From contig OZ193909.1 in the NCBI GenBank assembly GCA_964276515.1, positions 11,718,001 to 11,782,000 of the forward strand: a DNA stretch of 64,000 nt, written 5' to 3'. Both the position numbers and the translations under genes were made by a program. Positions 270-59,918 of this stretch are shown one piece after another; position 1 is the stretch's first letter, and each line of letters starts with the position of its first letter. Origin of the DNA: Gordius albopunctatus (taxonomy: Eukaryota). The notes below the pieces were generated by a model. It saw only the letters and a list, made by a program, of their open reading frames with translations, did no database searches and was not told where the DNA came from.

Positions 270-3248
270 GCGGTCCCAAGTCCGTGTGCAAAAAGTGGAG
301 GGTTGGCGTCAGGTCGAAAACCGGCCATAAAAACCAACTCTAAAATTATGATATTTTCAAACAAGATTTTACAAGAAAAGGCTAGGGCGTCCTCCACAAA
401 CGAAGCACACTGCATACCCCGCCCGTGCAATGTGAAAAATACATTAGGGTTACTGCCTAACTCATAACTAAGGCGGTTAAGGAAACTACTTGTGAAAAGA
501 ATGCAAATAGCTTGCTGGAATGTAGGAACGTTGACGGGGAAGAGCATCGAGGTCGCACAACTGCTAAAAATAAAAGGAAGGTGCACATCTCCTCCCTACA
601 AGAGACGAGGTGGAAGGGAACCAAAGCCCAGGAGTTAGGAGAAGGGTACAAACTATTCTACAGTGAGTCATCAAAGCGTAGAAGCGGGGTTGGTATCGTT
701 CTAAGCAAATCGTTCAAGGATAAGGTGGTCGAAGTCAAGCGTTGTTCCGACAGGCTAATGTGGGTGAAGATTGCCTACTAACCGTTATGTGCGCCTATGC
801 TCCCCAAATTGGGTGTTTGAAATCAGAGAAAGACATATTCTTTGATTCATCGGAAAAGGAAATACAAGGAATAAGAATAAGACTGGAAGAAAGGCTAATT
901 ATTGGGTCAGATTCCAACGCTAACGTAGGGAAAGATCGCCTCGGGTATGAACGCAATCATGGAGGCTATCGGCATGGTCTGAAGAATAAAGAAGGGGAAA
1001 ATTTCTCCAAGTATCCCAAGCATATGACATGGCGATCATTAACACATATTTTCAAAAACGCAAAGATCATATTGCGACCTATAGAAGTGGGAAGCATTTA
1101 GACAAATTGACTAATTGCTTATACGACGAAAGGACTTATTGAGTATCAAGGATTGCAAAGTAATACCGGGAGAAGAAATCGCCAGGCAACACCGTCCCCT
1201 TGTTATGGATCTTGACAGAAAAGTATTTCCCGAAAGAAGAAAGGTCTATGAACCTCGTTTTCGATACGAAAGACTAAAGGATACGTCGGCAAACGAAGAA
1301 TACCATCAAAAAGCCTCTCTCACTCTTGGGTGCAAGGAAGTTGTAAAGGGGCGTAGACGACGATTGGGAGACGCTATCTAATGACATTAATGAAACAGCG
1401 ATCCGTGTTCTAGGAAAGACCAAAAGAGGCAAAGCTATGAATAGGGAACTATGGTGGTGGGATCAATCGGTTAAAGATTTCATCGAAAGAAAGAAAAATC
1501 TATATAGACGGTGGCATAAATTAAAAAAGTCCCAAAATTATCAAGGGTACAGAGGCGCAAAGAGGGGCGCAAAAAAGGCCGTTGCAAAAGCAAAGAATGT
1601 CGCGTACACCGAGATGGCAAACAAACTGGATGATAAAGGGGGCGATAGGCTTATGTACGAATTAGCCAAGATAAGGGAGGAAAAAAGTCGCGATGTCGGA
1701 GTTCTTAAAATAGTCAAAAACACGAAGGGTGAAACCTTATTCAGCCGAAAGAAGTGATGGAAAGATGGAAAGGATATTTTAAGAAACTTATGAATATTGC
1801 AAATGACAAGGATTCCCTTCCCGAAATTGAGCCAAATATAAGTATGGTCGAACTCTTTCAGAATGATGAAGTTAGGACACAAATTAAGAAGATGCAAAAA
1901 GGAAAAGCAAATGACCCAGATGGAATACCTATGGAAGCATTGCTCGGATGTCGTGAAGAAGGAGTCAGCGCCATGACGAACCTCCTTAACAAGATATTGG
2001 TAGAAGAGCGAATCCCTAATCAATGGAGAGCAAGCACGATTATACCCTTATTTAAAAGCAAAGGAGACCCTTAGGATTGTGGCAATTATAGAGGTATCAA
2101 GCTTACGTGCCACTCCTTAAAGCTTATGGAATGGATCTTAGTAACAAGGCTGAAAAACGAGCTGGATTTATCGGCTAATCCATTCGGATTTGTGATCGGC
2201 AAATCCACAATCGACCCAATCTTCGCACTAAGACAAATTATGGATAAGTATGGTGGAAATAGGAAATACCTACATATGATTTTTATCGACTTGGAGAAAG
2301 CTTATGACACGGTCACCCGCGATTTAATATGGTGGTGCCTGAGGAAACAAAATATCCCTGACGCATAGGCTTATGAAAAATATGTATTAAGCCTCAAACT
2401 CTTGCGTTAGGACGACAGTTGGAGACTCTAAACCTTTTCGGGTCAATATTGGATTACATCAAGCTCTGATTTAAAAACTTTTTATTTAATATAATTATAG
2501 ACACGATAATGAGGGACATTCAAAAGCCATCGCCCTGGTGGAGGCTATATGCCGATTATATAGTACTATGTGAGCAAACAAGGGAGAAAGTATTCGAAGA
2601 AGCCGAAAAGTGGTCAAAGCGCTTGCCTGGATATGGTTTAAAGGTCAACGATTGAAAAACTGTATACATGGAAATTAACGGTAGAGGAACCCCATCGCTG
2701 GATGACCATCCAAAGTACCCAAAAGTAGACAGGTTTACATACCTCGGTTCGATGCTACATTAAGAGGGAGACTGCGCAACGGAAGTCAATGTCCGGATCC
2801 AAAAAGGATGGCTTAAATGGCGAAGTATATCCGGTGTAATGTGCGAAAAGAAAATGCCAATATGGTTAAAGAGCAAAGCTTACAAATCCATCGTAAGAGC
2901 GGTGTTACTCTATGGAAGTGAAACATGGGTATTAATGACGAATGACTTTCTCATGACAAAAATGGGTATTCACCCTATGGTGGACATGATTAACGAAAAT
3001 CGGCTTAAGTGGTATGGGCATATACTAAGAAAGGACATGGATGACGTAAATCGAAAAGCACTGGACATGGAGGTACCGGGGAAGAGAGGAAGAGGACGAC
3101 ACCGTGTTAAATGCAAAGGGCAAGTCGATAAAGTTTTGGAAACTAAAGAGATCAGTCAAGAAATGGCACTCATCATCCGGTCAAGATGGAAAAAACCTAT
3201 CAAAACAAACCCCACGAATGTGGCACCAAATAATTGATAAAGAAGAAG
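270..3248 (+). mobile_element. RTE-clade LINE, near full length, degenerate (APE endonuclease + RT)
   Basis: Fragmented ORFs with LQETRW, CAYAP, FIDLEKAYD and LLYGSETW motifs; (GAA)n tail; degenerate TSD agtaaaca/ggtaagca; same family as 38753-41843. Confidence 0.93.
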
Positions 3249-25693: not shown

Positions 25694-27460
25694 TTATATT
25701 GGTGTTAATATTGCGATATTTCTTGCTGGTAGCAAACACCTGCTTACCTTGAGAAATATGCAATAAATTAATTTCCATAATGGTTTGTTGTTTACATAGG
25801 CATTCAATGAAATCATATATAACGGGGTGGGCCCGGCCAACAAGGCATTATCCCAGTTCCAGAGCAAGAATCTCTCACCGTTTTCGGTGAAGCGATGCTC
25901 CGGATCTAAGATAATCTCCCTATTGTTGTCCGGGTCCTTCACTCTCTTAGGATATACTCTTGGAGAGTTTGCCTTATTGATTTGAATGTAGGGGTTGCCT
26001 TTGGATACAATACCAGGTCAGGTACTTCGCGTAACCGTCTGGCAGTGATCTTATGGTATAGCGTCCTCAATTTCTCCCGAGGTTCTGCCAAAACTGCCTC
26101 CTTCATATCCCTGATAGTAATTAAAAACTCATATTCCTCCCTAGATTGCTCATGGTTATGCCCGTGAGTAACTTCGGGGGAGGTTGTAATTTTTGCCTTG
26201 CCAGGGCAACTCCTCGTCCTACACCGATAGTAGGTAGTAGACGGGGCTCTTCTTGTTTTGTAATACAGATAACCACAAAAGTAAAGAAGGTAACTTTTGC
26301 CAGATGGAATAAAGCGCATGATATCTAAAAAAGGTAATAAAATTTATTATGTAAAATATAACTATTACTTTGCTGACTGCTTTGTATTCGTTCCACTACA
26401 TCAACCAAAATTTCTGCATCCTGATTGAGCCTAAAATATATTATAAATTTTTATTTAACTAATACAATAAGCTTGTTTTTTTATAAATTGTAACTTTAAT
26501 TACAACTAGCAAATCTTATAATAAATAAATAACTTACAATTATCGTATGTAGAAATGGTAGAAGGTAAAGCATGAGCTGGGAGAGATTGACTAGGACTTG
26601 ATGTAAAATCTATACAAATTATAATACACTTGAAATGTGTAGTTTGTAAACTTACATCTAATGGATGTATTCACAAATGTAGAGGAAGTTATTATAGGTG
26701 GAGGTCCTCGGGCTTGGACTTGTGAGACATTACCTACATAGATGAATTAGAAAGAATTACACTTGAAATGTGTTGTTTGTAAACTTACATCTAATGCTTG
26801 TATTCACAAATGTAGAGGAAGTTATTATAGGTGGAGGTCCTCGGGCTTGGACTTGTGAGACATTACCTACATGGATGAATTAGAAAGAATTACACCTGAA
26901 ATGTGTTGTTTGTAAACTTACATCTAATGCTTGTATTCACAAATGTAGAGGAAGTTATTATAGGTGGAGGTCCTCGGGCTTGGACTTGTGAGACATTACC
27001 AACATAGATGAATTAGAAAGAATTACACTTGAAATGTGTTGTTTGTAAACTTACATCTAATGCTTGTATTCACAAATGAAGATGAAGTTATTATAGGTAG
27101 AAACATATGCAAATTTACATTAAAGCTTAAGTTTACATTATAAGATTTGAATAAAGGATTAGATTTTAAGTGGTATAAAAATATATTTTGATAATATATT
27201 CTTTTCAAACATATCTTACATATTGATGTATTGCTGATGGAAGGGTTATGACCTCTATTATTAGCCCGTACATTTCGGATAATATCTTAAAAAGTTTGTA
27301 ATATAACAATCAATCTAATAGTTAACTCTAAACTTACTTGTTATATTTCCAAATCTATAATATTCCTGCATTTTTTCCCCACTTTTATATCGACGTATTG
27401 AAAATCACCAAATACCATAATTGGTTTTTGATTTGGGGATAATATAAATTCAATAGACAT
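25694..27460 (-). pseudogene. Truncated, frameshifted FLYWCH-MULE transposase gene with tandem exon repeats
   Basis: YLYYK..YYRCRTRSCPG..HGHNH FLYWCH and GERFLLWN, homologous to 28597-29186; no DDE core; frameshifts near 25940 and 27395. Confidence 0.75.
26620..27100 (-). repeat. 133-bp tandem repeat (about 3.5 copies): 78-nt exon + 55-nt intron
   Basis: Period from 26698/26831/26964; ag|GTAATGTC...ATTAGAT|gtaag. Confidence 0.85.
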
Positions 27461-28060: not shown

Positions 28061-30182
28061 ATGAGCCACATTTCTGCAATTACCGAAACATCAAAACGTG
28101 AGAGTATTTGTAGTAATACATTGTGTATGAATTTTTAAAATATAAAACTTTAGGTCAACCTCTAAATTTTGTGAGAATGTGTCTCATTACAACTGCTCCT
28201 AGGATAACTTTGCCTGGAACTGCTTCTCCAAGTATATTACCCTAGGATTTTTTGTACTTTTTAGGTCCACAAGCTGGAAGAATAAGTGCAATAGCTCCTC
28301 GTCCACCTAATTTTCCAATTCAAGCACAATTATTTGCCTCTCCAAGTATATTACCCTTGGATTTTTTGTACTTTTTAGATCCACAAGCTGGAAGAACAAG
28401 TGCAATAGCTCCTCGTCCACCTAATTTTCCAATTCAAGCACAATTAGATGCCTCTCCAAGTATATTACCCTTGGATTTTTTGTACTTTTTAGGTCCACAA
28501 TCACTTCAAGATGCTATGCTTCTCATGGATGTTACAAATCAGATGGAATCAAGCGAAGGTATGTATATTTTATTTAAGCTTTTTATATTATTTTAGCATC
28601 ATCTCCAGAGTATATCAGATCAAATGGAGGAGTAATACTATATTGCTCCTCTTATCTCTATGCTAAAAGCAGGAAGGCCTCAGAGAAAACCTACTACAAA
28701 TGCCGCGACTTCTCTTGCCCCGCAAAAGCCTTGGAGGTTGATGGTAGAATTCTTATCAATCGTCACCATAACCATGAACCTCCAAGGGAAGAATACGAGG
28801 CTTTGGTGACGAAGAGGGAGTTGAAAAACGCTGTTGCGTCTAATCCCGGTGTCAAAATTAGCAAAATTTATCATCAAACCATAAGCGCCCGAATGCTTGA
28901 GGTGCCTGACCTTACGGAATTTTCTATGGCTATGCCATCTTTTAAAGCCGTAAGGTCGACGATGAAAAGGGGCGTTATTAATAGGCTTCCTATACCTGCC
29001 AACAGAAGTCAAATTATTTTGACTGAAGCCCAAACACTAACTCCGAGGAATGAGCGGTTCCTTTTATGGAACGAAAATAACAACTTGTTAATTTTCGGGA
29101 CCCCTTCTATGTTGATAATCTTGTGTGAGGTAACCTCAATCTACATGGATGGTACCTTTAAAGTATGCCCTACTTTATTCTACCAAGTAATTAATTTTAT
29201 GCGTTAATAGATTTGAGATTTTAGCTTTACACCATACACGGGTACTATAAGGATCATATGATCCCAATAGTTTATGCCTTCATGCCCGACAGGAAGCGAT
29301 TAACGTATTGTGCTATATTTGATAAGTTGAAAGAGCTTTGCCTAGAGTTTAATTTGGAATTAAACCCGACCTATATACAAATAGACTTTGAGCGCTCTGC
29401 GAAGAGCGCTCTTCAAAGGTGTTTTCCGAATGGTGTGATCAAAGGTAATAATTTATCTGTCGTACTAATTTTTTATTTAAGGTTGTTTATTTCATTTTTC
29501 GAAAGCCTTGGTGAGGCGAGTAGAAAAGTTGGAATTCAAAAAACAATACCTAAGTGATCAGAACATTCGAAAAATGGTCCGAAGGGTGTCCGCTTTCTCT
29601 TTCTTACGATATGAGGACGTTTTAACCGTTTTTCAAGCCTTCTGGGATGACCCTATTGTCTCCCAGCATGCAAAATTACGTTCTTTTTTTTCGTATGTAT
29701 TTAACACTTGGGTGAGCCACTCAGCCACATTTTCCTATGAAATGTGGCAGAGATACGAGGCTGTTGGTCCTAGGACCAACAATCACCTCGAGGGTTATCA
29801 CAATTCCCTCAAATCTCTTATTGGAGTATCCCATCCCGACATTTACACTTGCGTTTCATTTTTAATTCAAATTAACACCAAGGCTGAGATTAATATTTTT
29901 CAAATTGATCAAGGTCAAGTATTATTTTCTATAAAAAAACATGTACGCGATAAAAATACGCGTATTAATATTTTACGCGATTTATACATGGATACATCGC
30001 GTAATTACAATATTTTAAACTATGTAGACAATATAGCTAAATATATATCATATAGTGGTACTTCGCGCGTTTATAATCTTGTTAATTTTTCTTCGAACTC
30101 GCATTTTGATAATAATTCGCTTGATGTTAATACTATTTCGCGTGAAAGAGACACTAGTGATTATACTAGTGACTCCGAATAA
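28061..30182 (+). CDS. Apparently intact Mutator-like (MULE) transposase with FLYWCH domain, 617 aa, 8 exons
   Basis: Exons 28061-28097, 28154-28231, 28265-28345, 28379-28459, 28493-28558, 28597-29186, 29225-29444, 29482-30182; FLYWCH, YMDGTF, IDFE, GCLFH and TNNHLEGYH. Confidence 0.88.
28222..28500 (+). repeat. 114-bp tandem repeat: 33-nt intron + 81-nt exon
   Basis: gtatattacc at 28232, 28346 and 28460. Confidence 0.9.
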
Positions 30183-35800: not shown

Positions 35801-36945
35801 AAAATATCAAGGTACAACTTACATTATGCATTTGTTTTGTCCTTTAAATTAAAACCAGGATTTAATCAAATGTAATCGTAAGAGATTTTGGCAAAAGATA
35901 TTAAGAATGAGGTTTAAGAAAATTATGGATACAAAACACGACAACTATTATTAATAAAAATCAGCCTTGCCAAAGATATTGATTCAATGTTAAAACGTTC
36001 GCCCCAATTTCCTTATTTCTTGCCTCGTAGTAATTTTAAAACTCAACGCTCTGGATTAAGCATAAATGCTTAATGAAATAAGAATTCCTAACAATAAGGA
36101 TATCCCAGGTTAAATAACGTACGAGGGATGATGAATAAATAGTACTATATAAAATTAATTTAAATAAAATGAATTTATCAATTCTATACATTAATCTTTT
36201 CCCTTAAAAAAATCTAAATTTCAAAATTGTGGTATGGCCGATCCTAGATTTAGCATTTTTATGAAGCTTCACATAATAACAAAAATACTAGGAATATTTC
36301 ACAACTTGAGAAAATTTTTTAACATTGTCTAAAGTTCCTACATTTTCTTTAACATTGTTAAATTTATCCAAGAAAATGATATGACTGTTAAGTGCCATAG
36401 GGTTGTTTCCAGGGGCTTACGCGAGATATATTATAAGGGGGAGGTATTTTGATATGAAATGTCAATAATAGTGCAGACTTTATACTCTAACTCTAGATTG
36501 AAGAATTTTTATTAATTTTCATAAATATATTAAATTGAGTTCAATACATTACCTTTATGCGTGATATTATGTTTGTATCTATTAAGCGCAGCAACAATTC
36601 GCCATAAAATATATAAAAATTCTCCCCTTAAGCCCAGACTATTGAACCATTGTTTAATGGATAGTTTAAAAATATGACTTTACTTTGGACACCTAGGACC
36701 AAATAGTTTAACCAACAATTGCACCAATGAAATCAGGATAGAGAGACCAAAGGCATCACAGGTTTATTCCTCGATAGGTGGCCAGCTATGAGCCAGAAAT
36801 TTAGAAATACATTTAGCAATTAATATGCTAATTTTCTATCGCTCTTGGTTCAAATGTCCCTAAGCAGAGGCTGGGGGTAAAAATGTTGGCTGGGAGAGGG
36901 CTTGATATTTGGCCGTCTTACGGTATTTTAAAAATATATTTTCTA

Positions 36946-37330
36946 ATAGTACAACTTGTTTTAGTCATATAATAAGCCAATTTTCAAAAAAATATTTTTT
37001 TAATGGATTATGTTGATTATGACAATTGTCACCACTGTGACGGCAAGTCTTCACAAAAATATGTATCCTATAGCACAAATTGTTTTAGTCATATAATAAG
37101 CCAACTTTCAAACAAAAATATTTATTTCTGTAGAAAATGTTTATTATGACATTTGTCACCATAGTGACCGCAAGTCTTCACAGCAATATTTTTTATAATA
37201 GTACAACTTATTCTTGTCATATAATAAACCAACTTTCAGAAAAATATTTTTTAATAAAAAATGTTAATTATGACAATTGTCAGCAGTGTGACCGCAAATC
37301 TTTAAAAAATATTTTTTTTAATAAAGCATA
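36946..37330. repeat. About 125-bp degenerate tandem repeat, 3 copies
   Basis: atag.acaa.tt...gtcatataataa.ccaa...tgtgac.gcaa.tct repeated. Confidence 0.75.
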
Positions 37331-38752: not shown

Positions 38753-41700
38753 CTTCTTCTTCTTCTTCTTTATCAGTTATTTGGTCCCACATTGGTGGGG
38801 TTTGTTTTGATGAGTCTCTTCCATCTTGACCGGGTTAGTGCCATGTCTTGACGAATCTCTTTAGTTTCCATAACTTTATCGACTTGCCTTTTCCACGTGA
38901 CACGGGGTCGTCCTCTTCCTCTCTTCCCCGGTATTTTCATGTCTAGCACTTTTCGATTTACGTCATCCGGGTCCCTTCTTAGTATATGCCCATACCACCT
39001 TAGCCGATTTTCGTTAATCATGTCCGCCATAGGTTGAATACCCATTTTTGTCATGAGAAAGTCATTCGTCATATGGTCGAGCTTAGTATACCCCAAGCTC
39101 CACCGTATCATTCTCATCTCCGTGGCTTGTAATAGCTTTCCTTCCGTGGTGTTTAATGCCCATGTTTCACTTCCATAGAGTAACACCGGTCTTACGATGG
39201 ATTTGTAAGCTTTGCTCTTTAACCATATTGGCATTTTCTTGTCGCACATTACACCGGATATACTTCGCCATTTAAGCCATCCTTTTTGAATCCGGGCATT
39301 GATTTCAGTTGCGCAACCTCCCTCTTGATGTAGCATAGAGCCGAGGTAAGTAAACCTGTCTACTTTTGGGTACTTTAGGTGGTCATCCAGCGATGGGGTG
39401 CTTGTACCGTTCATTTCCATGTATACCGTTTTTCGATCGTTGACCTTTAAACCATATCCAGCTAAGCGCTTTGACCACTTTTCTGCTTCTTCGAATACCT
39501 TCTCCCTTGTTTCCTCGCATAGTACTATATCATCGGCATATAGGATACACCATGGCGATGGCTTTTGAAAGTCGCTCGTTATCGTGTCTATAATTATATT
39601 AAATAAAAAGGGACTTGAAGCAGAGCCTTGATGTATTCCAATATTAACCCGAAAAGGTTTAGAGTCTCCAACTGTCGTCCTAACGCAAGAGTTTGAAGCT
39701 TCATAAATATTTTTCATAAGCCGTATATATGCGTCAGGGATATTTTGTTTCCTCAGGCACCACCATATTAAGTCGCGGGGGACCGTATCATAAGCCTTCT
39801 CCAAGTCGATAAAAACCATATGTAGTTCTTTCCTCTTTTCGCCATACTTATCCATCATTTGTCTCAGGGCGAAGATTGGGTCGATTGATTTGCCGGTCAC
39901 GAATCCGAATTGATTAGCCGATATTTCCACCTCGCTTTTCAGCCTTGTTACTAAGATCCTTTCCAAAAGCTTGAAGGAGTGGCAAGTTAGCTTGATACCT
40001 CTGTAATTGCCGCAGTCCTGAGGGTCTCCTTTGCCTTTAAATAAGGGTATAATCGTGCTTGCTCTCCATTGATTAGGGATTCGCTCTTCTACCAATATCT
40101 TGTTAAGGAGGTTCGTCAAGGTGGTGACTCCTTCTTCACGACATCAGAGCCATGCTTCCATATGTATTCCATCTGGGCCATTTGCTTTTACTTTTTGCAT
40201 CTTGTTCATTTGTGTCCTAACTTCATTCTCTTGAAAGAGTTTGACCATACTTATATTTGGCTCAATTTCGGGAAGGGAATCCTTGTCATTTGCAATATTC
40301 ATAAGTTTCTTAAAATATCCTTTCCACCTTTCCATCACTTCTTTTGGCTTGAATAAGGTTTGACCCTTCTCGCTTTTTACTATTTCAATAACTCCGACAT
40401 CGCGACTTTTCTTCTCCCGTATCTTAGCCAATTTGTACATAAGCCTATCGCCCCCTTTATGATCCAGTTTGTTTGCCATCTCGGTGTACGCGGCATTCTT
40501 CGCTTTTGCAACGGCCTTTTTTGCTACCCTCTTTGCGTCCCTGTACTCTTGATAATCCTCTGACTTTTTTGATTTATGCCACAGTCTCTATAGATTTTTC
40601 TTTCTTTCGATTAAATCTTTAACCGATTGATCCCACCACCATAGTTCCCTATTCATAGCTTTGCCTCCTTTGGTCTGTCCTAGAACACGAATCGCTGTTT
40701 CCTTAATGTCCTTAGATAGCGTTTCCCAATCTTCGTCTACGTCCCTTTGCAACTTCCTTGCACTCAAGAGTGAGGAGGCTTTTTGATGGTATTCTTAGTT
40801 CGTCGACGTATCCTTTAGCCTTTCGTATCGAATTCGAGGTTCATATACCTTTCTTCTTTCGAGAAATACTCTTCTGTCAAGATCCATAACAATGGGACGA
40901 TGTTGCCTGGCGATTTCTTCTCCCGGTATTACTTTGCAATCTTTGATACTCCATAAGTCCTTTCGCCGTATAAGCAAATAGTCGATTTGACTAAAATGCT
41001 TCCCACTTCTATAGGTCACAATATGATCTTCGCGCTTTTGAAAATAGGTGTTAACGATCGCCATGTCATATGCTTGGGATACTTGGAGAAGTTTTTCCCC
41101 TTCTTTGTTCTTCAGACCATGCCCATAGCCTCCATGATTGCGTTCATACCCGAGGCGATCTTTCCCTACGTGAGCGTTGAAATCGGCCCCAATAATTAGC
41201 CTTTCTTCCTGTCGGATTTCTTGTATTTCCTTTTCCAATGATTCGAAGAATATGTCTTTCTCTGATTCCGAACACCCAATTTGGGGAGCATACGCGCACA
41301 TAACGGTTAGGAGACCCCCTTGATCTGCAATCTTCACCCACATTAGCCTGTCGGAACAACGTTTGACTTCCACCACCTTGTCCTTGAACGATTCACTTAG
41401 AACGATACCGACCCCGTTTCTACGATTTGGTGACCCACTGTAGAAAAGCTTGTATCCTTCTCCTAATTCCCGAGCTTTCGTTCCGTTCCACCTCGTCTCT
41501 TGTAGGCAGGCGATGTGTACCTTTCTTCTTTTTAACATCTGTGCGACCTCGATGCTCTTCCCCGTCAACGTTCCCACATTCCAGCACGTAATTCGCATTC
41601 TTTCCACAACTAGTTTCCTTAACCGCCTTCGTTGTGAGTTGGGCAGTAACCCTAGTGTATTTTTCACATTGCACGGTCGGGGTATGCAGTGCGCGTCGTT

Positions 41701-41843
41701 TGTGGAGGACGCCCTAGCCTTTTCTTGTAAAATCTCGTTTGAAACTATCATAAATTTTGGAGTTGATTTTTATAGCCGGTTTCCGACCTGACGCCAACCC
41801 TCCACTTTTTGCACACGGACTTGGGGTCGTCGTAGGTAGTGTT
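38753..41843 (-). mobile_element. Full-length RTE LINE; single APE-RT frame with three nonsense codons
   Basis: ORF pieces 41751-40795, 40479-40144 and 40119-38773 share one frame; YADD; (GAA)n tail; 19-bp TSD atatgatatatcatatatt. Confidence 0.96.
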
Positions 41844-43690: not shown

Positions 43691-43914
43691 GTGCTGGTGC
43701 TAAGCGTTTTACCGATTCGGACCCATAATCACTAATGGACATAATAAATAACACATTTCCAAACTAGATACAAAATCGTAAATAAATAAAATAATGGAAA
43801 ATATAAATTATAATAATTATATATATTAAATATATGTTTAAATTGATAAATGCACAATAGTATATTACATAATATATATAAGATAGCATATATTGTAATA
43901 CAATATAGTTTTTT

Positions 43915-44580
43915 AATAAATGCGCTAACATAAAAACGTCTATAGACATACTAAAACCTATATTATAACTGGATAAACGTAACTTTGTGATTAGTTAATG
44001 AATATATGCAAGCATATAATAATTGGTAATAATATATAGTTTTCTATTCAATGCGTTAACATGAAAATGTCTATAGTGATACTAATACCTATATTATAAG
44101 TGAATAAAGGTAACTTTGTGATTAGTTAATGAATATATGCAAGCACATAATACATTTTAAAATATATAGTTTTATATTCAATGCATTAACATGGAAATGT
44201 CTGTAGCCATACTAATACCTATATTATAAGTGAATAAAGGTAATTTTGTGATTAGTTAATGAGTATATGCAATTGGTGCCCTATCAACTCGCCGAAAATC
44301 ATCTCGCCGAATTTAATGTCCCCCGTTTAAAAAAGGTCCCCTAATTTAAAATCGTCGCCCATTCAACCAATCACAAAATGGGGGACCTTTTTTTAAACCG
44401 GGGGACATTAAATTCGGCGAGATGGTTTTCGGCAAGTTGACGGGCCACCTATGCAATTATATAATAAATTTTAACAATATATATATATTTCCAATTCAAC
44501 ACGTCTATAGCCATACTAATAACTATATTATAAATGGATAAACGTAAGTTTGTGCAGCACATAATAAAATGTAATGCTAT
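43915..44580. repeat. About 131-bp AT-rich tandem repeat
   Basis: taa.tttgtgattagttaatga at 43980, 44111 and 44241; interrupted by a MITE. Confidence 0.75.
44275..44449. mobile_element. MULE-type foldback MITE, 175 bp
   Basis: 9-bp TSD tatgcaatt; nearly the whole element is an inverted repeat. Confidence 0.9.
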
Positions 44581-46293
44581 ATAGTTTTTTTTAACATTTT
44601 ATTGGGCAATAAAAATAAATAGTGAATTATACAAAACAAAATATGGGTCCACAAAATTTATTCTGAATAAAAGATAAGTTGCATGATATAAAAATCAAAA
44701 TTTTTAAAGAAGAATTTTTAATTGTATTTATTAACCCTGTGCCACCCACTTACGTGTGTTAAGCGATAACTTATATATACGTCCCCCCACACACATACGC
44801 GTAATTTTTACTCCTTACTCCTATTTATGATGAGGTACGATTTTTAGTCTTTTAAGATATAAATAGTTAAAACAATTTTTATTGCTTATTGCCGGAGAAG
44901 TAAAATACTCAAGCTAAATAAAGAAATTAAAAAATAATGATCATCCCTCTATACGAAGATATAAAAAATGTTTTATTCCCGATAATTTAGATTTTGTTTA
45001 ATTCGCGGGATAATTCTCCGACGTTCGCAATAGTTTAATAAATAAAATTTTCTGAGTATTTTAGAAACCCTTAAGAGTACTTATGGGTTGTGAGAAACCC
45101 CATATTATTATAATTTAAAATCATATAAGCAGTTTTAGATTTAGCTTGGTTTTATATCGTCCTTTTAAAGTTATATTTTTCCGTTAAAATCAAGCGGGAA
45201 CTGATGATGAACTAAGACATAAATAATTACATAATTTGGATTCACTATTTTACAAAATATATAAGAAATAGATTTTAAAATTTATTCACGATTTTGTATA
45301 TGATTTATTTCTCAGATTCACTAGCTTCTGTGAAGTCGCTAGTGTCTCTTTCATCGGATAGATTATTAGAAATATTATTGGATATAAAGATTGAAGGCAA
45401 ATCTGAAAAATTATAATACCGCGAGTCATAACAATAGGAAACAAGACTAGAGATATTGTCGATATAATAAAAAATATCAATATCGCGCGAAGCATCATTG
45501 TATGAGGCGAGTAGGGTGCTAATTTGTGAATTCTTTTCATGGACGCGTTTATTTATATAATATAAAATGCGACCTTGATCAATCTGCAAAAGATTAATCT
45601 CGGTTTTCCCGTTATCCTACTAATTTTCTCTAAAGGGTTTGCAACAACAGCGTCTTTACTTATCGTAACAAGACATTCATACTCTTCCTTCGGAGTTTCA
45701 TGGTTGTGCTGAAGATTAACAGCAATAATACCATTCACTTCCGAGGTTGTTACTGGACAAGCTGAATTTCGGCACTTGTAATAAACTTTGTTGGGCATCT
45801 TCCTGTTCTTAACATACAGGTAGGAAGAGTAATAAAGGATTGATCCTCCTTTTTGGGATTTAATATAAATGGGAGTTTGTTCTAAAAATAAAATAAAAAT
45901 TATTTATGTGATATATATCTCGATGAATAGCTTTCATCTGGTTGGTAGCATCAACAAAAATTAGTGCATCTTCAATTGAAGGACCTTTTAAAATATTAAT
46001 GTGAAACATTTAAAATAATCATTTTACCACTTGAAGTCATAGAACTTATGGTAGATGAAGAAGAGCCTAAAGATGATGCTATGACAATATAAACTATGAA
46101 TCAAGTATATTCATACTTGGGCAAGCAGATTGCCTAATTTTGAGAGGTTCCAGACAATCTTGGAAATTGTACATTTGTTATGGGTGTACCAACAACATAT
46201 AAAGATGATGCTATAACAATATAAACTATGAATCAAGTAAATTCATACTTGGGCGAGCAGATTGCCTAATTTGAGAGGTTCCAGACAATCTTG

Positions 46294-46545
46294 TGTAACG
46301 AAGTGGCCGATCCCATCCTCGTCGCCAAATGTAACGAAGTGGCCGATCCCATTCTCGTCGCAAAATGTAACGAAGTGGCCGATCCCATTCTCGTCGCAAA
46401 ATGTAACGAAGTGGCCGATCCCATCCTCGTCGCAAAATGTAACGAAGTGGCCGATCCCATCCTCGTCGCCAAATGTAACGAAGTGGCCGATCCCATTCTC
46501 GTCGCCAAATGTAACGAAGTCGCCGATCCCATCCTCGTCGCCAAA
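46294..46545 (-). repeat. 7 x 36-bp array: TT + 18-nt PBS (tRNA-Ser GCU-like) + last 16 nt of the LTR
   Basis: Unit on + strand tgtaacgaagtggccg-atcccatcctcgtcgcca-aa. Confidence 0.92.
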
Positions 46546-46849
46546 TGTAACGAAGTGGCCGGCTGGTAGAACCCTAAGCTCCCGTATACTAGGCTCCCGT
46601 ATAACACTAACTCCGATTCTAAACCAAGAGACTAAGTCAAAAGACAGAGACTGTTTTATTAGGTGGATAAGGTTTTATATATACATAGCGAAGGACATAT
46701 ATAAAAGTAGTAATCAAATAAGAGATAAAGTACGGTGTAAACTAAGGTATATTCAAATGGCTAAGCGTATTTCAATCATCTGTGACCGCGCTCATGTATA
46801 GGAAAAACGCGTGTATTCAAATTGCAACCTTGAATGCCGCTACACTACA
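46294..46849 (-). mobile_element. Solo LTR with a tandem PBS/U5 extension
   Basis: TGTAG...TTACA ends; 5-bp TSD tcttg; TATA and AATAAA on the minus strand; core LTR 46546-46849. Confidence 0.88.
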
Positions 46850-49220
46850 TCTTGGAAATTGCAGATTTGGTATGGGTGTACCGACAACATATAAAGATGA
46901 TGCTATAACAATATAAACTATGAATCAAGTAAATTCATAGTGGGCAAGCAGATTGCCTAATTTCAGAGGTTCCAGACAATCTTGGAAATTGCACATTTGG
47001 TACGGGTGTACGAACAACATATAGAGATGATGCTATAATAATATAAACACTGAATCAAGTAAATTCATACTTGGGCGAGCAGATTGCCTAATTTTAAGAG
47101 GTTCCAGACAATCTTGGAAATTGCACATTTGGTATGGGTGTACCAACAACATATAAAGATGATGCTATAACAATATAAACTATGAATCGAGTAAATTCAT
47201 ACTTGGGCAAGCAGATTGCCTAACTTGGGGATTTCCAGGCATAATAAGAATAGATGTTCCAACAATAGGAAATTGCACAATTGACAAATTAAAAAGTGTA
47301 TTGGCAAAATTTGAAATTATCTTTAATAAAATATTTAATTCGAGCAATCAAATGATTGGTTTTCAAAGTTTATATGTTATGTCGTACGAGCGCAAATTCA
47401 TTAAGAGTTTTGATTGGTTTTAAGGATTTTGTCCATTATTTCTTTTGACCAGGAGTGGTTTCACCATCACTACCATAGACTGCCGAACAGCTGTTTTTTA
47501 CATTAATACCACGAAGTCATCCAGGAAGTCGCCATGTCATAAGTGGAAATTCTTGAAATTAAGGTAAAATTGATATATCCTAAAATATATGCTAAATTTC
47601 ATCCAAAATGAGATTTTTAATCTATTTTTTAAATAAATGAATAACATAAATTAATTTAAAAAAAAAATTTTGTAAAGTGTTATTTGGAAAATGAGGTCTT
47701 GCTCAGTAAAGAACTGCATATCTTACCTTAACAAATAAAATAGCAAAAAGCTTTTATTTCAGAATTTATGTATATTTTTAGATTTCCATAAGATCCAGAG
47801 TTATTGTTTAAATAGATTAAATTGATGGGCCCTAAATTTAAATTGAAACAACATTCAAGTATATGCAGTAAACACCTTCGACCCCAGGATTTTAATAAAA
47901 ATAGAAGTTCAAATTATATTAAAGAAGATACTATGCCATCTCTGTATTTATTTCAGGTAATTTCTAAATTTGAATTAAATTCAACAGGATCAGTCATCAG
48001 GATTAATAGATCTAACAAAATTTCCCTCACATCAAGATTAGAAAGGCAACAGTTATAGGAGATGCTGAACTTAGTTCCTATTTTTATATTGGCCTCTGTG
48101 ACTAGTGCTTAAAAGATTAATTGCAGTAGACAAATAGCTCCTTGAAATGAATGTTGAAAAGGAGATGTTGCAAACAACCACAAGATTATTTGTACTCATA
48201 TTTTACAATGTTTTAATGTATTAAATCATGTAATAAATTTTACAAACTATGCATATATTTTATAAAATAAAACTAATGCCTCATTTTATTTTAATCTAAG
48301 TGATTTTGTATTTGATTTTTTACATTTTGAAGTTTGCTTCTTGTTTGTTTATGGATTTTCTTTTCAATTAGTCCAATCTTAAACATATTTAATCCACTAC
48401 AATGGAATAATACTTATAAAATTTGGTAAGACTAGAAATAAAAATTTGTCTACTTTTAATATTAATATTTGTTGAATAAGTCATGGTCGTGATATAAAAA
48501 CCAGATAAAAATAAGTAAGAATTTTAAAAATCAAATATAAAAAGTTCAAGGGGGGGTGCTTGTTCTCCCTGTCTACCCTATTTACCCCCTTGTGCTTTTA
48601 AAAACTAATGCAATTTATTAAAAAATTTAGGCCAAAAAATATTTCTAATTGCTGGCTCCAAAGCAAATTTAGGGGAGAAAGCATTTGAAACTTTTCATTA
48701 TTTAATTGTCAACCCTTTTTATCTTTAGGCTATTTATTAATTTATTTAAAAAACAAATGTGGGCTAGTGTTCAGTCCACTAATGCTATAAAGATTTTCAA
48801 AAATAATGAAACAATTATAATATTTTAAAAAATAAAAATAAACTTTTTTCTAAAAGCCTTTTATTTATAATAGAAATTAAGGTTTTTCATTCATTAATTG
48901 GATCTAACATTTTTTCATCTTTAATTATGTTGATCCGGAAGTAGGCTCTCTAAATCATTTACAATTATTAGTTAAATTAATAGTTAATACATATAGCAAA
49001 ATTTTTCTTCATAATTTTTGCAATATTTCAAACCAAGATTTTAAAACTAACATTAGGCAAAAATTTAATAAAACTATTATTTTTACGGGAGAGTAAATTT
49101 TTTATTGACAATTAGTTAATTTATTAATATATTTTTACTTCATAAATCTTGCATGATGCCCGGTATCGTTTTATGTAAAATTGTATCTTTGATATGCGAT
49201 AATACTTTAAATATAATATA

Positions 49221-57808: not shown

Positions 57809-59918
57809 TGTAGGGAAACAAATTACACTTACCTTGGAAAGATTTGGTTGTAATACGTACAAGGTGAAAATAGAAAGAATACACACACAGAATCAACTTT
57901 CATTTGAATGTTATCGTTATCTATCGCTATATAAACTCACTCTTTTATAAGTTTCATATCATTGTTCTTTTATCGTGTAATAAATTATATTCCTCCTCTC
58001 TCACTAAAAATGGTGACCCAGACCTTTTTTTCCCTCAACAATCTCAGAGATTAATTAGTTATAGCTCGCAAACAATTTTTTTTTCTAAATATTATTCATT
58101 AAAATGGAAAATAAACAAGAGATTGAAGCAACTATACAGCTGAAGATACCCACATTTTATCGCAGAAATGTCAAAATATGGTTGGCCCAGGCAGAGGCCG
58201 TATTCCAGGCAAGAAGAATTACCTCCGAAAAATCAAAATTTGGTTACATTCTTGAAACGTTACCACCCGAAATCGCTGAAGAGGTGGAGGATTTAATCAT
58301 TAATATTCCAACTGATCTACCATTTCAGAAACTTAAACAAGCACTTATCAAGAGGGTCGGCGAATCAGATGAATCAAGATTGATGGAATTTCTAAAGGCA
58401 GTGGATTTAGGGGATAGATCCCCATCGCAGCTTTTACGATACATGAAGAGTTTAGTGGGAACATACGTTCTTGACCAAAAGAGTCTAAAGGAACTCTGAC
58501 TCAACAAATTGCCTTGTGAACTCATTACCATATTAGTCTCGTTTACTGAAGATACTGCACTGGAGAAATTGGCTGAAACAGCCGATCGCATCGTGCTGTC
58601 AAAAAAACAACTAATTATGTTAATAACATTCATAACCCAAAAAAACACTCCACTGATGCATACCCTAAAGAACTAACAGAAGTTTTATCTGCTCTAAATA
58701 GGACATTAGAAAAGATAGGTCAACACCAGACCCCTTTTCACTCATCTGGGATTTCAAACAACAGACCATGGTGCTGGTATCATGACACCTGGGGATCAAA
58801 CGCTAGGAAGTGTGTCCAACCATGTTATTTTGGAAAGGGGTTAAAAAGGCAGGCCTACCAGTAAAGGCGATAGCTGGATCCGGCCATATCAACCATAATC
58901 GCCTTTTCTATTTTTTTGACAAAATATCAGGTTTACGTTATCTGATTGACACGGGAGTCCAAATTAGCGTAATTCCACCGACAACAAAAACGAAAGTAAC
59001 ATTAAATAAATTATGTTTAAAAGCAGCTAATTCGAGCAATATAAATACTTACGGGCAAACATCGTTAACATTAGATATAGGTTTAAAAAGAGAATTTAAC
59101 TGGATTTTTTTGATCGCAGACGTTTATTCAGCGATATTAGGTTCAGATTTTATATCACACTTTGGTTTAATAATTGATGTTAAAAATAAACGCATAATTA
59201 ATCCACAAAATTATTCTCTAAAATTATCGAATATAACCAATTCCTCAATGTCATCTATAAACAATCCAATTCCACAGGATAATGATTTTTACTCTATATT
59301 AAAACAATTTCCGGATATTACAAAGCCACCAGATTTTAATGACAAAGTGAAACATAATACCCAACACCATATAATTACGAAAGGACCAGCGATACATTGT
59401 TCTCCACGACGTTTAAACCCCGAAAAATTTAAAATAGCAAAAAATGAATTTGAAGAGATGAGTAGATTAGGCATAATAAAACCCTCACATAGTAAATGGT
59501 AATCCCCCTTACATATGGTACCAAAAAAAACCCCAGGGACATGGCGTCCATGTGGAGATTTTAGAATGCTTAATTACGCAGCAAAACCTGATAGATACCC
59601 CATTCCACATACATCTACATGATTTCGCTTTAAATCTAACAGGCAAATGCATTTTTTCAAAGTTGGATTTAGTAAAAGCTTACCATCCAATTCCGATGGC
59701 ACCAGAGGACATCCCTAAGACCTGAATTTGTAAGAATCCCGTTCGGAGTGCGGAACGCAGCGCAAAAATTTCAGCGCCTCATAGATGACATTTTTAATGG
59801 TTTGGATTTTGTGTATGCTTACATCGATGATATACTTATCGCCAGTTCCACAGAAAATGAACACAAATTACACCTCTCAACAGTCTTTAAACGATTACAA
59901 ACATACGGTATTCGCATA
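57809..59918 (+). mobile_element. 3'-truncated Gypsy LTR retrotransposon (5' LTR, PBS, gag, protease, partial RT)
   Basis: LTR about 57809-58008; PBS tggtgacccagac (tRNA-Trp-like); gag [40 protein letters not shown]. Confidence 0.92.

Follow-up and report, generated by a model that had tools for sequence, protein, structure and literature searches.

Additional primer binding sites (PBSs) are known from HIV-1, for which variants with multiple PBSs are described in culture (PMC1084362), and for which the MAL-type partial duplication of the PBS is described as a 23-nt insertion present in 14% of isolates (PMC1084362; PMC3185550). Bipartite or extended binding of the primer is described for Ty1, Ty3, HIV-1, FIV, RSV and the Drosophila gypsy element (PMC5371799; PMC1635307). 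Plus-strand synthesis is reported to stop once 18 nt of the primer have been copied, at m1A58 (PMC13191261), and the tRNA-copied plus strand of Ty3 in yeast is presented as a dead end, the PBS not being inherited from the primer (PMC5371799), from which it follows that inheritance of tRNA-copied sequence is not universal. Members of the Mag lineage of Ty3/gypsy elements are characterised by LTRs of 139-304 bp, mostly 5-bp target-site duplications (TSDs), a PBS for tRNA-Ser or tRNA-Leu and, in some cases, tandem repeats in the 5' UTR, and for cqgypsy_1 of the Osvaldo lineage copies of tRNA sequence flanked by a 26-nt LTR duplication are reported (PMC3286476). A search of the literature that covered few subscription journals and no supplements found no description of an array of LTR tip plus PBS inside an LTR, and the accessible text of PMC3185511 and PMC11251516 held nothing on point concerning a jump into U5.

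Such an array is present in the 64-kb stretch of DNA analysed here (hereafter the window), where an LTR core on the minus strand, reading from 46849 to 46546 and extending from TGTA to TACA, is directly followed by seven 36-bp units (46545 to 46294), each composed of TT, an 18-nt PBS and a further copy of the 16 nt that end the element, the LTR tip (Table 1). TACA is found both at the end of the core (46549-46546) and at the end of the array (46297-46294), and the CAAGA TSD, which falls within the 4-6 bp class, flanks element and array as a whole and encloses a single LTR. The insertion interrupts a 132-bp host repeat within one of its copies, and the adjacent copy, uninterrupted and lacking the CAAGA duplication, represents the empty form. 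The element is a solo LTR and the array sits inside its target-site duplication. This layout, an LTR followed by seven units that abut a 5-bp TSD, had been proposed in a first-pass annotation of the same DNA and was confirmed by the sequence and by TRF, which returned a period of 36, 7.4 copies and 96% matches; the unit sequence given at that time is exact for units 3 and 7 and departs from the other five at one or two columns, and the interval assigned to the array, 46294-46561, includes it but also takes in the LTR's own tip. The 16-nt tip occurs eight times in the window, in all cases within the solo LTR, against 0.20 occurrences expected by chance. A stop-free frame of 186 aa across the array on the plus strand (46241-46801) was discarded as a by-product of the 36-bp period, ARAGORN called no tRNA gene within the 64 kb, and the Rfam search of the window gave a single weak match to a bacterial sRNA (E 0.56).

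Table 1. Coordinates of the solo LTR, its terminal array and the insertion site within the window.
Feature	Position	Strand	Basis
Solo LTR core, 304 bp, TG...CA, member of a multi-copy family	46546..46849	-	sequence and public-run contigs
TATA-like box TATATAAA	46674..46681	-	consensus match only
AATAAA poly(A)-signal-like site, orientation consistent	46655..46660	-	consensus match only
U5 segment absent or replaced in other LTR variants	46563..46608	-	contig joint 46562->46609
15-bp tandem duplication within the U5 segment	46574-46603	-	tandem-repeat finding
U5 stretch complementary to tRNA-Ser(GCT) nt 1-19	46549..46567	-	comparison with tRNA gene L007:151-232
16-nt LTR tip, present again in each unit; its terminal CA is the one integrase would act on	46546..46561	-	
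Unit 1, TT + PBS + tip; private change in tip	46510..46545	-	
Unit 2, change at PBS position 11 (common to units 5 and 6)	46474..46509	-	
Unit 3, exact	46438..46473	-	
Unit 4, PBS position 2 changed, within the CCA complement (common to units 5 and 6)	46402..46437	-	
Unit 5, both PBS changes	46366..46401	-	
Unit 6, same sequence as unit 5	46330..46365	-	
Unit 7, exact; its CA abuts the TSD	46294..46329	-	
TSD CAAGA, upstream copy	46850..46854	-	
TSD CAAGA, downstream copy	46289..46293	-	
Host 132-bp tandem repeat, insertion target	46068..47241	.	parts 46849-47223 and 46068-46287

Other features of the window comprise two inverted LINE-like copies that are about 90% identical and contain endonuclease and RT frames (38762-41825 and 275-3248), and a FLYWCH-domain frame with a neighbouring frame (28578-30182), which are presumably the relic of a DNA transposon. 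A further frame (58807-59502) matches a retroviral-like aspartic protease with an E value of 0.001 and gave no Pfam match; it is probably a fragment of a Ty3/gypsy pol gene, with no link to the solo LTR shown. Unrelated tandem repeats, their periods covering the range 114-133 bp, are located at 26625-27098, 28221-28500, 36930-37323, 43888-44272 and 46849-47223.

The PBS begins with TGG, the complement of CCA, and is separated from the LTR end by the 2-nt TT spacer. A scan of genome_contigs with a 20-nt pattern, composed of 15 encoded PBS letters and five T-loop letters taken from a published tRNA fragment (as given in PMC11855652), returned 14 matches in 10 loci, and 12 of these, in eight of the loci, represent the 3' end of tRNA-Ser(gct) genes called by ARAGORN. 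The genes are of eukaryote type and lie on short contigs of bacterial bins, being probably contaminants; they belong to other eukaryotes and not to the host. Judged on these genes, the 18-mer is a PBS complementary to the 3' end of tRNA-Ser(GCT) plus CCA, and to that extent the identity of the primer given in the first-pass annotation is borne out. A minor PBS variant, sought as a tRNA isodecoder, was present in none of the 14 matches from these other eukaryotes. Six eukaryote-type tRNA-Ser(GCT) genes are arranged in tandem with a 151-bp period on one such short contig of a bacterial bin (L005:1-983), and contigs L006-L012 likewise carry eukaryote-type tRNA genes, probably through contamination.

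Comparison of the LTR with the same tRNA revealed a feature absent from the first-pass annotation, namely that the tip region is complementary to the tRNA's 5' end. Positions 46567-46549 are identical to the antisense of tRNA nt 19 to 1 at 15 of 19 positions, with two of the four differences being G-U wobbles, a score reached at none of 127,454 background places in the window and in 4 of 200,000 shuffles. The predicted duplex of U5 with the tRNA 5' end has an energy of -31.3 kcal/mol, and none of 5000 shuffles was as good. As the match to nt 1-7 could be explained by the symmetry of the acceptor stem, nt 8-19 were tested alone and matched at 10 of 12 positions (184 of 200,000 shuffles and one of 127,468 window places did as well). 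The LTR thus has a second tRNA-complementary segment outside the PBS, for which pairing is predicted from the sequence. Perfect match blocks start at -24, -18 and -10, and the units restart at one of these three starts, -18. A fold-back hairpin of tip and PBS was tried as a cause of the jump and is not used as an explanation here because the predicted fold is no better than that of shuffled sequences, 1250 of 5000 being as good for the RNA and 2208 of 5000 for the DNA of the window element, and 3348 and 2463 of 5000 for the second element described below.

In order to place the locus among other members of its family, contigs (Logan) were compared from four of nine listed public runs, X1 and X2 being from one study, X3 from another, and X4 from organism B. 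Over 46510-46960 the four runs contributed 1311, 287, 36 and 108 contigs, respectively, and the many different flanks found at 46849 establish that the LTR is multi-copy; it belongs to a dispersed family in which, in other members, the LTR is followed by the PBS and internal sequence. The PBS is succeeded by one shared leader in contigs of X1, X2 and X4, which diverge from the window into this leader after PBS nucleotide 18 (X2 and X4) or 14 (X1 and X2). Since both PBS classes enter the same leader and differ from one another only at PBS positions 15-17, nucleotide 18 is the border between PBS and leader, and it is exactly on this border that the array junction falls. The two classes (46310-46327) look as if a tRNA copy had replaced the PBS end, and the 14-nt class could also be derived from the 18-nt class by mutation. 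In X1, at least two contigs continue past the full 18-nt PBS (46310) into sequence unlike the usual leader or tip, and these are possibly ends with an unremoved primer copy, or another family.

When a single unit with its flank was compared with X1-X3 (104, 32 and 5 contigs, respectively), unit-to-unit joints were observed in at least two contigs of X1 and at least one of X2. A full unit followed by sequence unlike unit, leader or window flank was present in at least two contigs of X1 (departing at 46290) and at least one of X2 at each of 46293 and 46295; three further contigs (X2 records 14 and 16, X3 record 19) continue past a unit for 34, 419 and 85 unaligned letters. These counts of joints and foreign flanks are minimum counts. 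Extra units thus terminate other insertions of the family too. Summed contig depth at unit end and PBS, which is not copy number, was 25,337 and about 230,000 in X1, 7,189 and about 31,000 in X2, and 9.55 and 22.9 in X3. Contigs did not cover the window's right flank (46270-46287) in X1-X3 or 46510-46525 in X4, and such contig gaps prove nothing; the contigs are not long enough to connect unit, PBS and leader, and loose ends extend to at most 30 letters, with no coding sequence linked to the LTR. Behind a unit at 46294, loose ends of X1 and X3 revealed a second unit variant whose PBS differs at tRNA positions 67 and 69, owing to either an isodecoder or mutation. The family also varies within the LTR, as at least one contig in each of X1 and X4 passes directly from 46562 to 46609, missing U5 segment 46563-46608 and rejoining one base before the tip. 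At 46673, 46682, 46777 and 46795 the LTR of the window differs from nearly all contigs compared, implying that it belongs to another strain or has acquired changes of its own.

A second instance of the junction was obtained from a metagenome scan for two PBS copies with 5-30 letters between them, which yielded a single match, contig L001, with 18 letters between the copies, corresponding to a period of 36, one of the 26 spacings allowed. The order across L001:65-131 is tip, GA, the full 18-mer, a copy of the contig's own upstream 18 nt that is identical at 16 of 18 positions, and a PBS that matches for 13 nt. The extra module lies ahead of what reads as leader and not at a right end; beyond the duplication there is a long GT-rich stretch with no ORF of more than 124 aa, and the contig begins 82 nt upstream. 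By blastn, L001 gave no significant match to the window LTR beyond the PBS region, and its status as an LTR element is deduced from the PBS-like layout only. In both elements the junction restarts at -18 with 0-1 nt of microhomology. Perfect match blocks to the tRNA 5' end start at -18 and -11 in L001, so that the restart again coincides with a block start (one of two), but its overall match of U5 is weak, at 12 of 18 positions (equalled by 2661 of 200,000 shuffles) and with a duplex energy reached by 967 of 5000 shuffles. Scans of genome_contigs for the tandem pattern, and of viral_contigs for the tandem and tRNA patterns, gave no matches, and contigs L002, L013 and L014 were rejected as chance matches in phage-like DNA.

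We consider it probable that a single slip of RT at the m1A58 stop duplicated a module of tip and PBS, that priming at the last PBS then moved this module into the LTR, and that copying amplified it. In the first step, plus-strand synthesis would copy the tip, TT and 18 nt of the primer and then stop, the junction at exactly PBS nucleotide 18 being in agreement with the m1A58 stop length that the first-pass annotation had invoked (described in PMC13191261). The stalled end would next move 18 nt upstream, to the first base of a match block in U5, from where tip, TT and PBS would be copied a second time. Given that U5 is complementary to the 5' strand and D arm of the primer, the minus-strand tip and the tRNA's freed 5' part would be able to stand in for one another as partners, and the freed 5' strand may help the restart in U5. 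Selection for a module complete for priming and integration, and not the jump itself, could account for where the left breakpoint lies. Secondly, by standard LTR replication, the duplicated module would become fixed in the leader as two or more modules, and priming at the last PBS would place all upstream modules in minus-strand strong-stop DNA and hence in both LTRs. Thirdly, the number of units would change by slippage or template switching among units, copying of this kind being consistent with the variant pattern considered below, and finally LTR-LTR recombination would leave a solo LTR between two TSD copies. The sequences examined include no full-length element, and a leader with several modules ahead of a coding region is a supposition of this scheme. 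Integrase acts on the physical end of the cDNA, which is set by the primer, and under priming at the last PBS the last CA is an ordinary cDNA end; use of the outermost end for integration, correctly recognised in the first-pass annotation, is thus expected and needs no special choice.

The closest alternative to the idea of the first-pass annotation is reiterative synthesis, in which tip, TT, 18 nt of tRNA and jump follow one another repeatedly at the cDNA's right end during a single replication cycle, so that most units are fresh copies of the primer. It accounts for a junction that falls on nucleotide 18 and coincides with the start of a block matching the tRNA 5' end, each round restores the same geometry, and many ends carry a unit. 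The units themselves speak against it. Five of the seven are altered, at one or two of only three variable columns, and in four of these five the PBS is affected; the concentration of seven variant cells in three columns has a probability of 7.7e-5 under independent change. Independent priming is expected to leave no shared changes of non-tRNA origin, yet units 4-6 have in common a change in the CCA complement, a column that is not encoded by the tRNA genes examined. In a search over duplications and point changes, a single starting unit sufficed to rebuild the whole array by tandem duplications among which three mutations, one for each column, were interspersed, and the seven units consequently need not be seven priming events, which weakens the notion that they are a record of such events. 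The shared variants could in part be recurrent sequencing errors at homopolymer borders. The array is compatible with a single founding junction copied in stages and, as the extra module of L001 is moreover not positioned at a right end, reiterative synthesis appears unlikely. Of the origin first put forward, in which plus-strand DNA copied the primer and then jumped onto U5, the jump is supported and the repetition of separate priming events for every unit is not.

The involvement of RT in the junction could be dispensed with altogether if an ordinary tandem duplication of host DNA had arisen in a single ancestor across the PBS and the end of the LTR and been spread by normal replication. Unrelated tandem repeats abound in the window, U5 has a separate 15-bp duplication, and every model requires that the array later grew by copying. 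Nevertheless, such a duplication would have to place its right breakpoint exactly at PBS nucleotide 18 in two unrelated elements, with an equal period and without guiding homology, and we regard it as improbable. The same exact restart at -18, with so little microhomology, would suit end-to-end template jumping onto other tRNA primers that had been extended by 18 nt, as products of abortive initiation whose length is set by the enzyme footprint. The active sites of Ty3 RT are, however, described as being about 13 bp apart and not 18 (PMC5371799), and the variants common to several units speak against independent templates; we regard this proposal, too, as improbable. Selection may alternatively have kept the array as a decoy that captures either the primer tRNA or 3' fragments of tRNA, in that 3'-tRFs are described as repressing LTR elements via the PBS and PBS-derived sites as acting in 5' UTRs (bioRxiv 10.64898/2026.01.22.698655); with five of seven units altered, four of them in the PBS, and with extra sites in the element's own leader expected to add targets for silencing, this is highly improbable, and we found no evidence for the tRNA-fragment sponge suggested in the first-pass annotation. 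A single duplication private to the locus and expanded by local slippage, for which the unit variants do indicate local copying, is scarcely tenable, being contradicted by the units with other flanks and the unit-to-unit joints found in runs of two studies when, as the first-pass annotation had advised, extra units were sought in other family members.

The array shows that the right end of an LTR is not fixed, as a duplication of about 36 bp that contains an integrase end and both predicted primer contacts creates a new working end which is passed on in the family. The array is likely a by-product of replication and probably does not represent a host function. Its junctions are in effect fossils of the m1A58 stop, an intermediate of reverse transcription, and come from an animal element not open to direct study; they point to a candidate contact between U5 and the tRNA 5' end. 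Arrays of tip plus PBS will also mislead annotation with respect to LTR boundary, PBS and age calls. More tentatively, and with considerable doubt, we raise the possibility of a general side reaction in which the primer tRNA bridges the jump of an m1A58-stalled plus strand into U5 wherever U5 complements the primer's 5' end, the module, self-contained for priming and integration, ratcheting the LTR end outward and its number of units going up and down as a heritable trait in tRNA-primed families that are unrelated to one another. Bridged jumps of this kind could also be the source of those U5 tips that complement tRNA 5' ends, such tips then having become fixed.

With respect to lineage, the solo LTR, known here without a coding region, resembles Mag elements in its short LTR, 5-bp TSD and Ser PBS, features that are typical and not exclusive. 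BEL/Pao elements also have 5-bp TSDs, and lineage is for this reason not settled by LTR size, TSD and PBS. The description of the Mag lineage, in the accessible text of PMC3286476, mentions no tip-plus-PBS array inside the LTR. As in the multi-PBS and MAL-type variants of HIV-1, replication appears to have produced a heritable extra PBS beside the normal one, but in HIV-1 the extra copies are situated in the leader, either at the PBS or downstream of it, whereas the Gordius array is in the LTR and inside the TSD, and the HIV-1 cases, as described, involve no re-copied U5 tip, no array of seven units and no entry into the LTR. The presence of primer-derived PBS sequence beyond the right LTR end is shared with abnormal 3' provirus junctions of HIV-1 and MLV, which are described as having an unprocessed end, a retained dinucleotide, 2-15 nt of PBS and joins at microhomology (PMC2797772); in the solo LTR, by contrast, a new tip comes after each PBS, and the final CA makes a clean join with a 5-bp duplication. 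Pairing with parts of the tRNA outside its 3' 18 nt, which in Ty3 is described as including the D arm, is a property of the elements with extended primer binding, and the tRNA's 5' end reportedly pairs with U5 in FIV. The solo LTR differs from these elements in that its predicted second site lies within the final 22 nt of U5, at a distance of 5 nt from the PBS, and matches tRNA nt 1-19, and in that this site and the PBS were duplicated together as one module. As far as they are described, the cases known from HIV-1, MLV and Ty1/Ty3/FIV/gypsy thus each cover one ingredient of the array, and what is new at this locus is a heritable extension of the LTR end at the level of a family.
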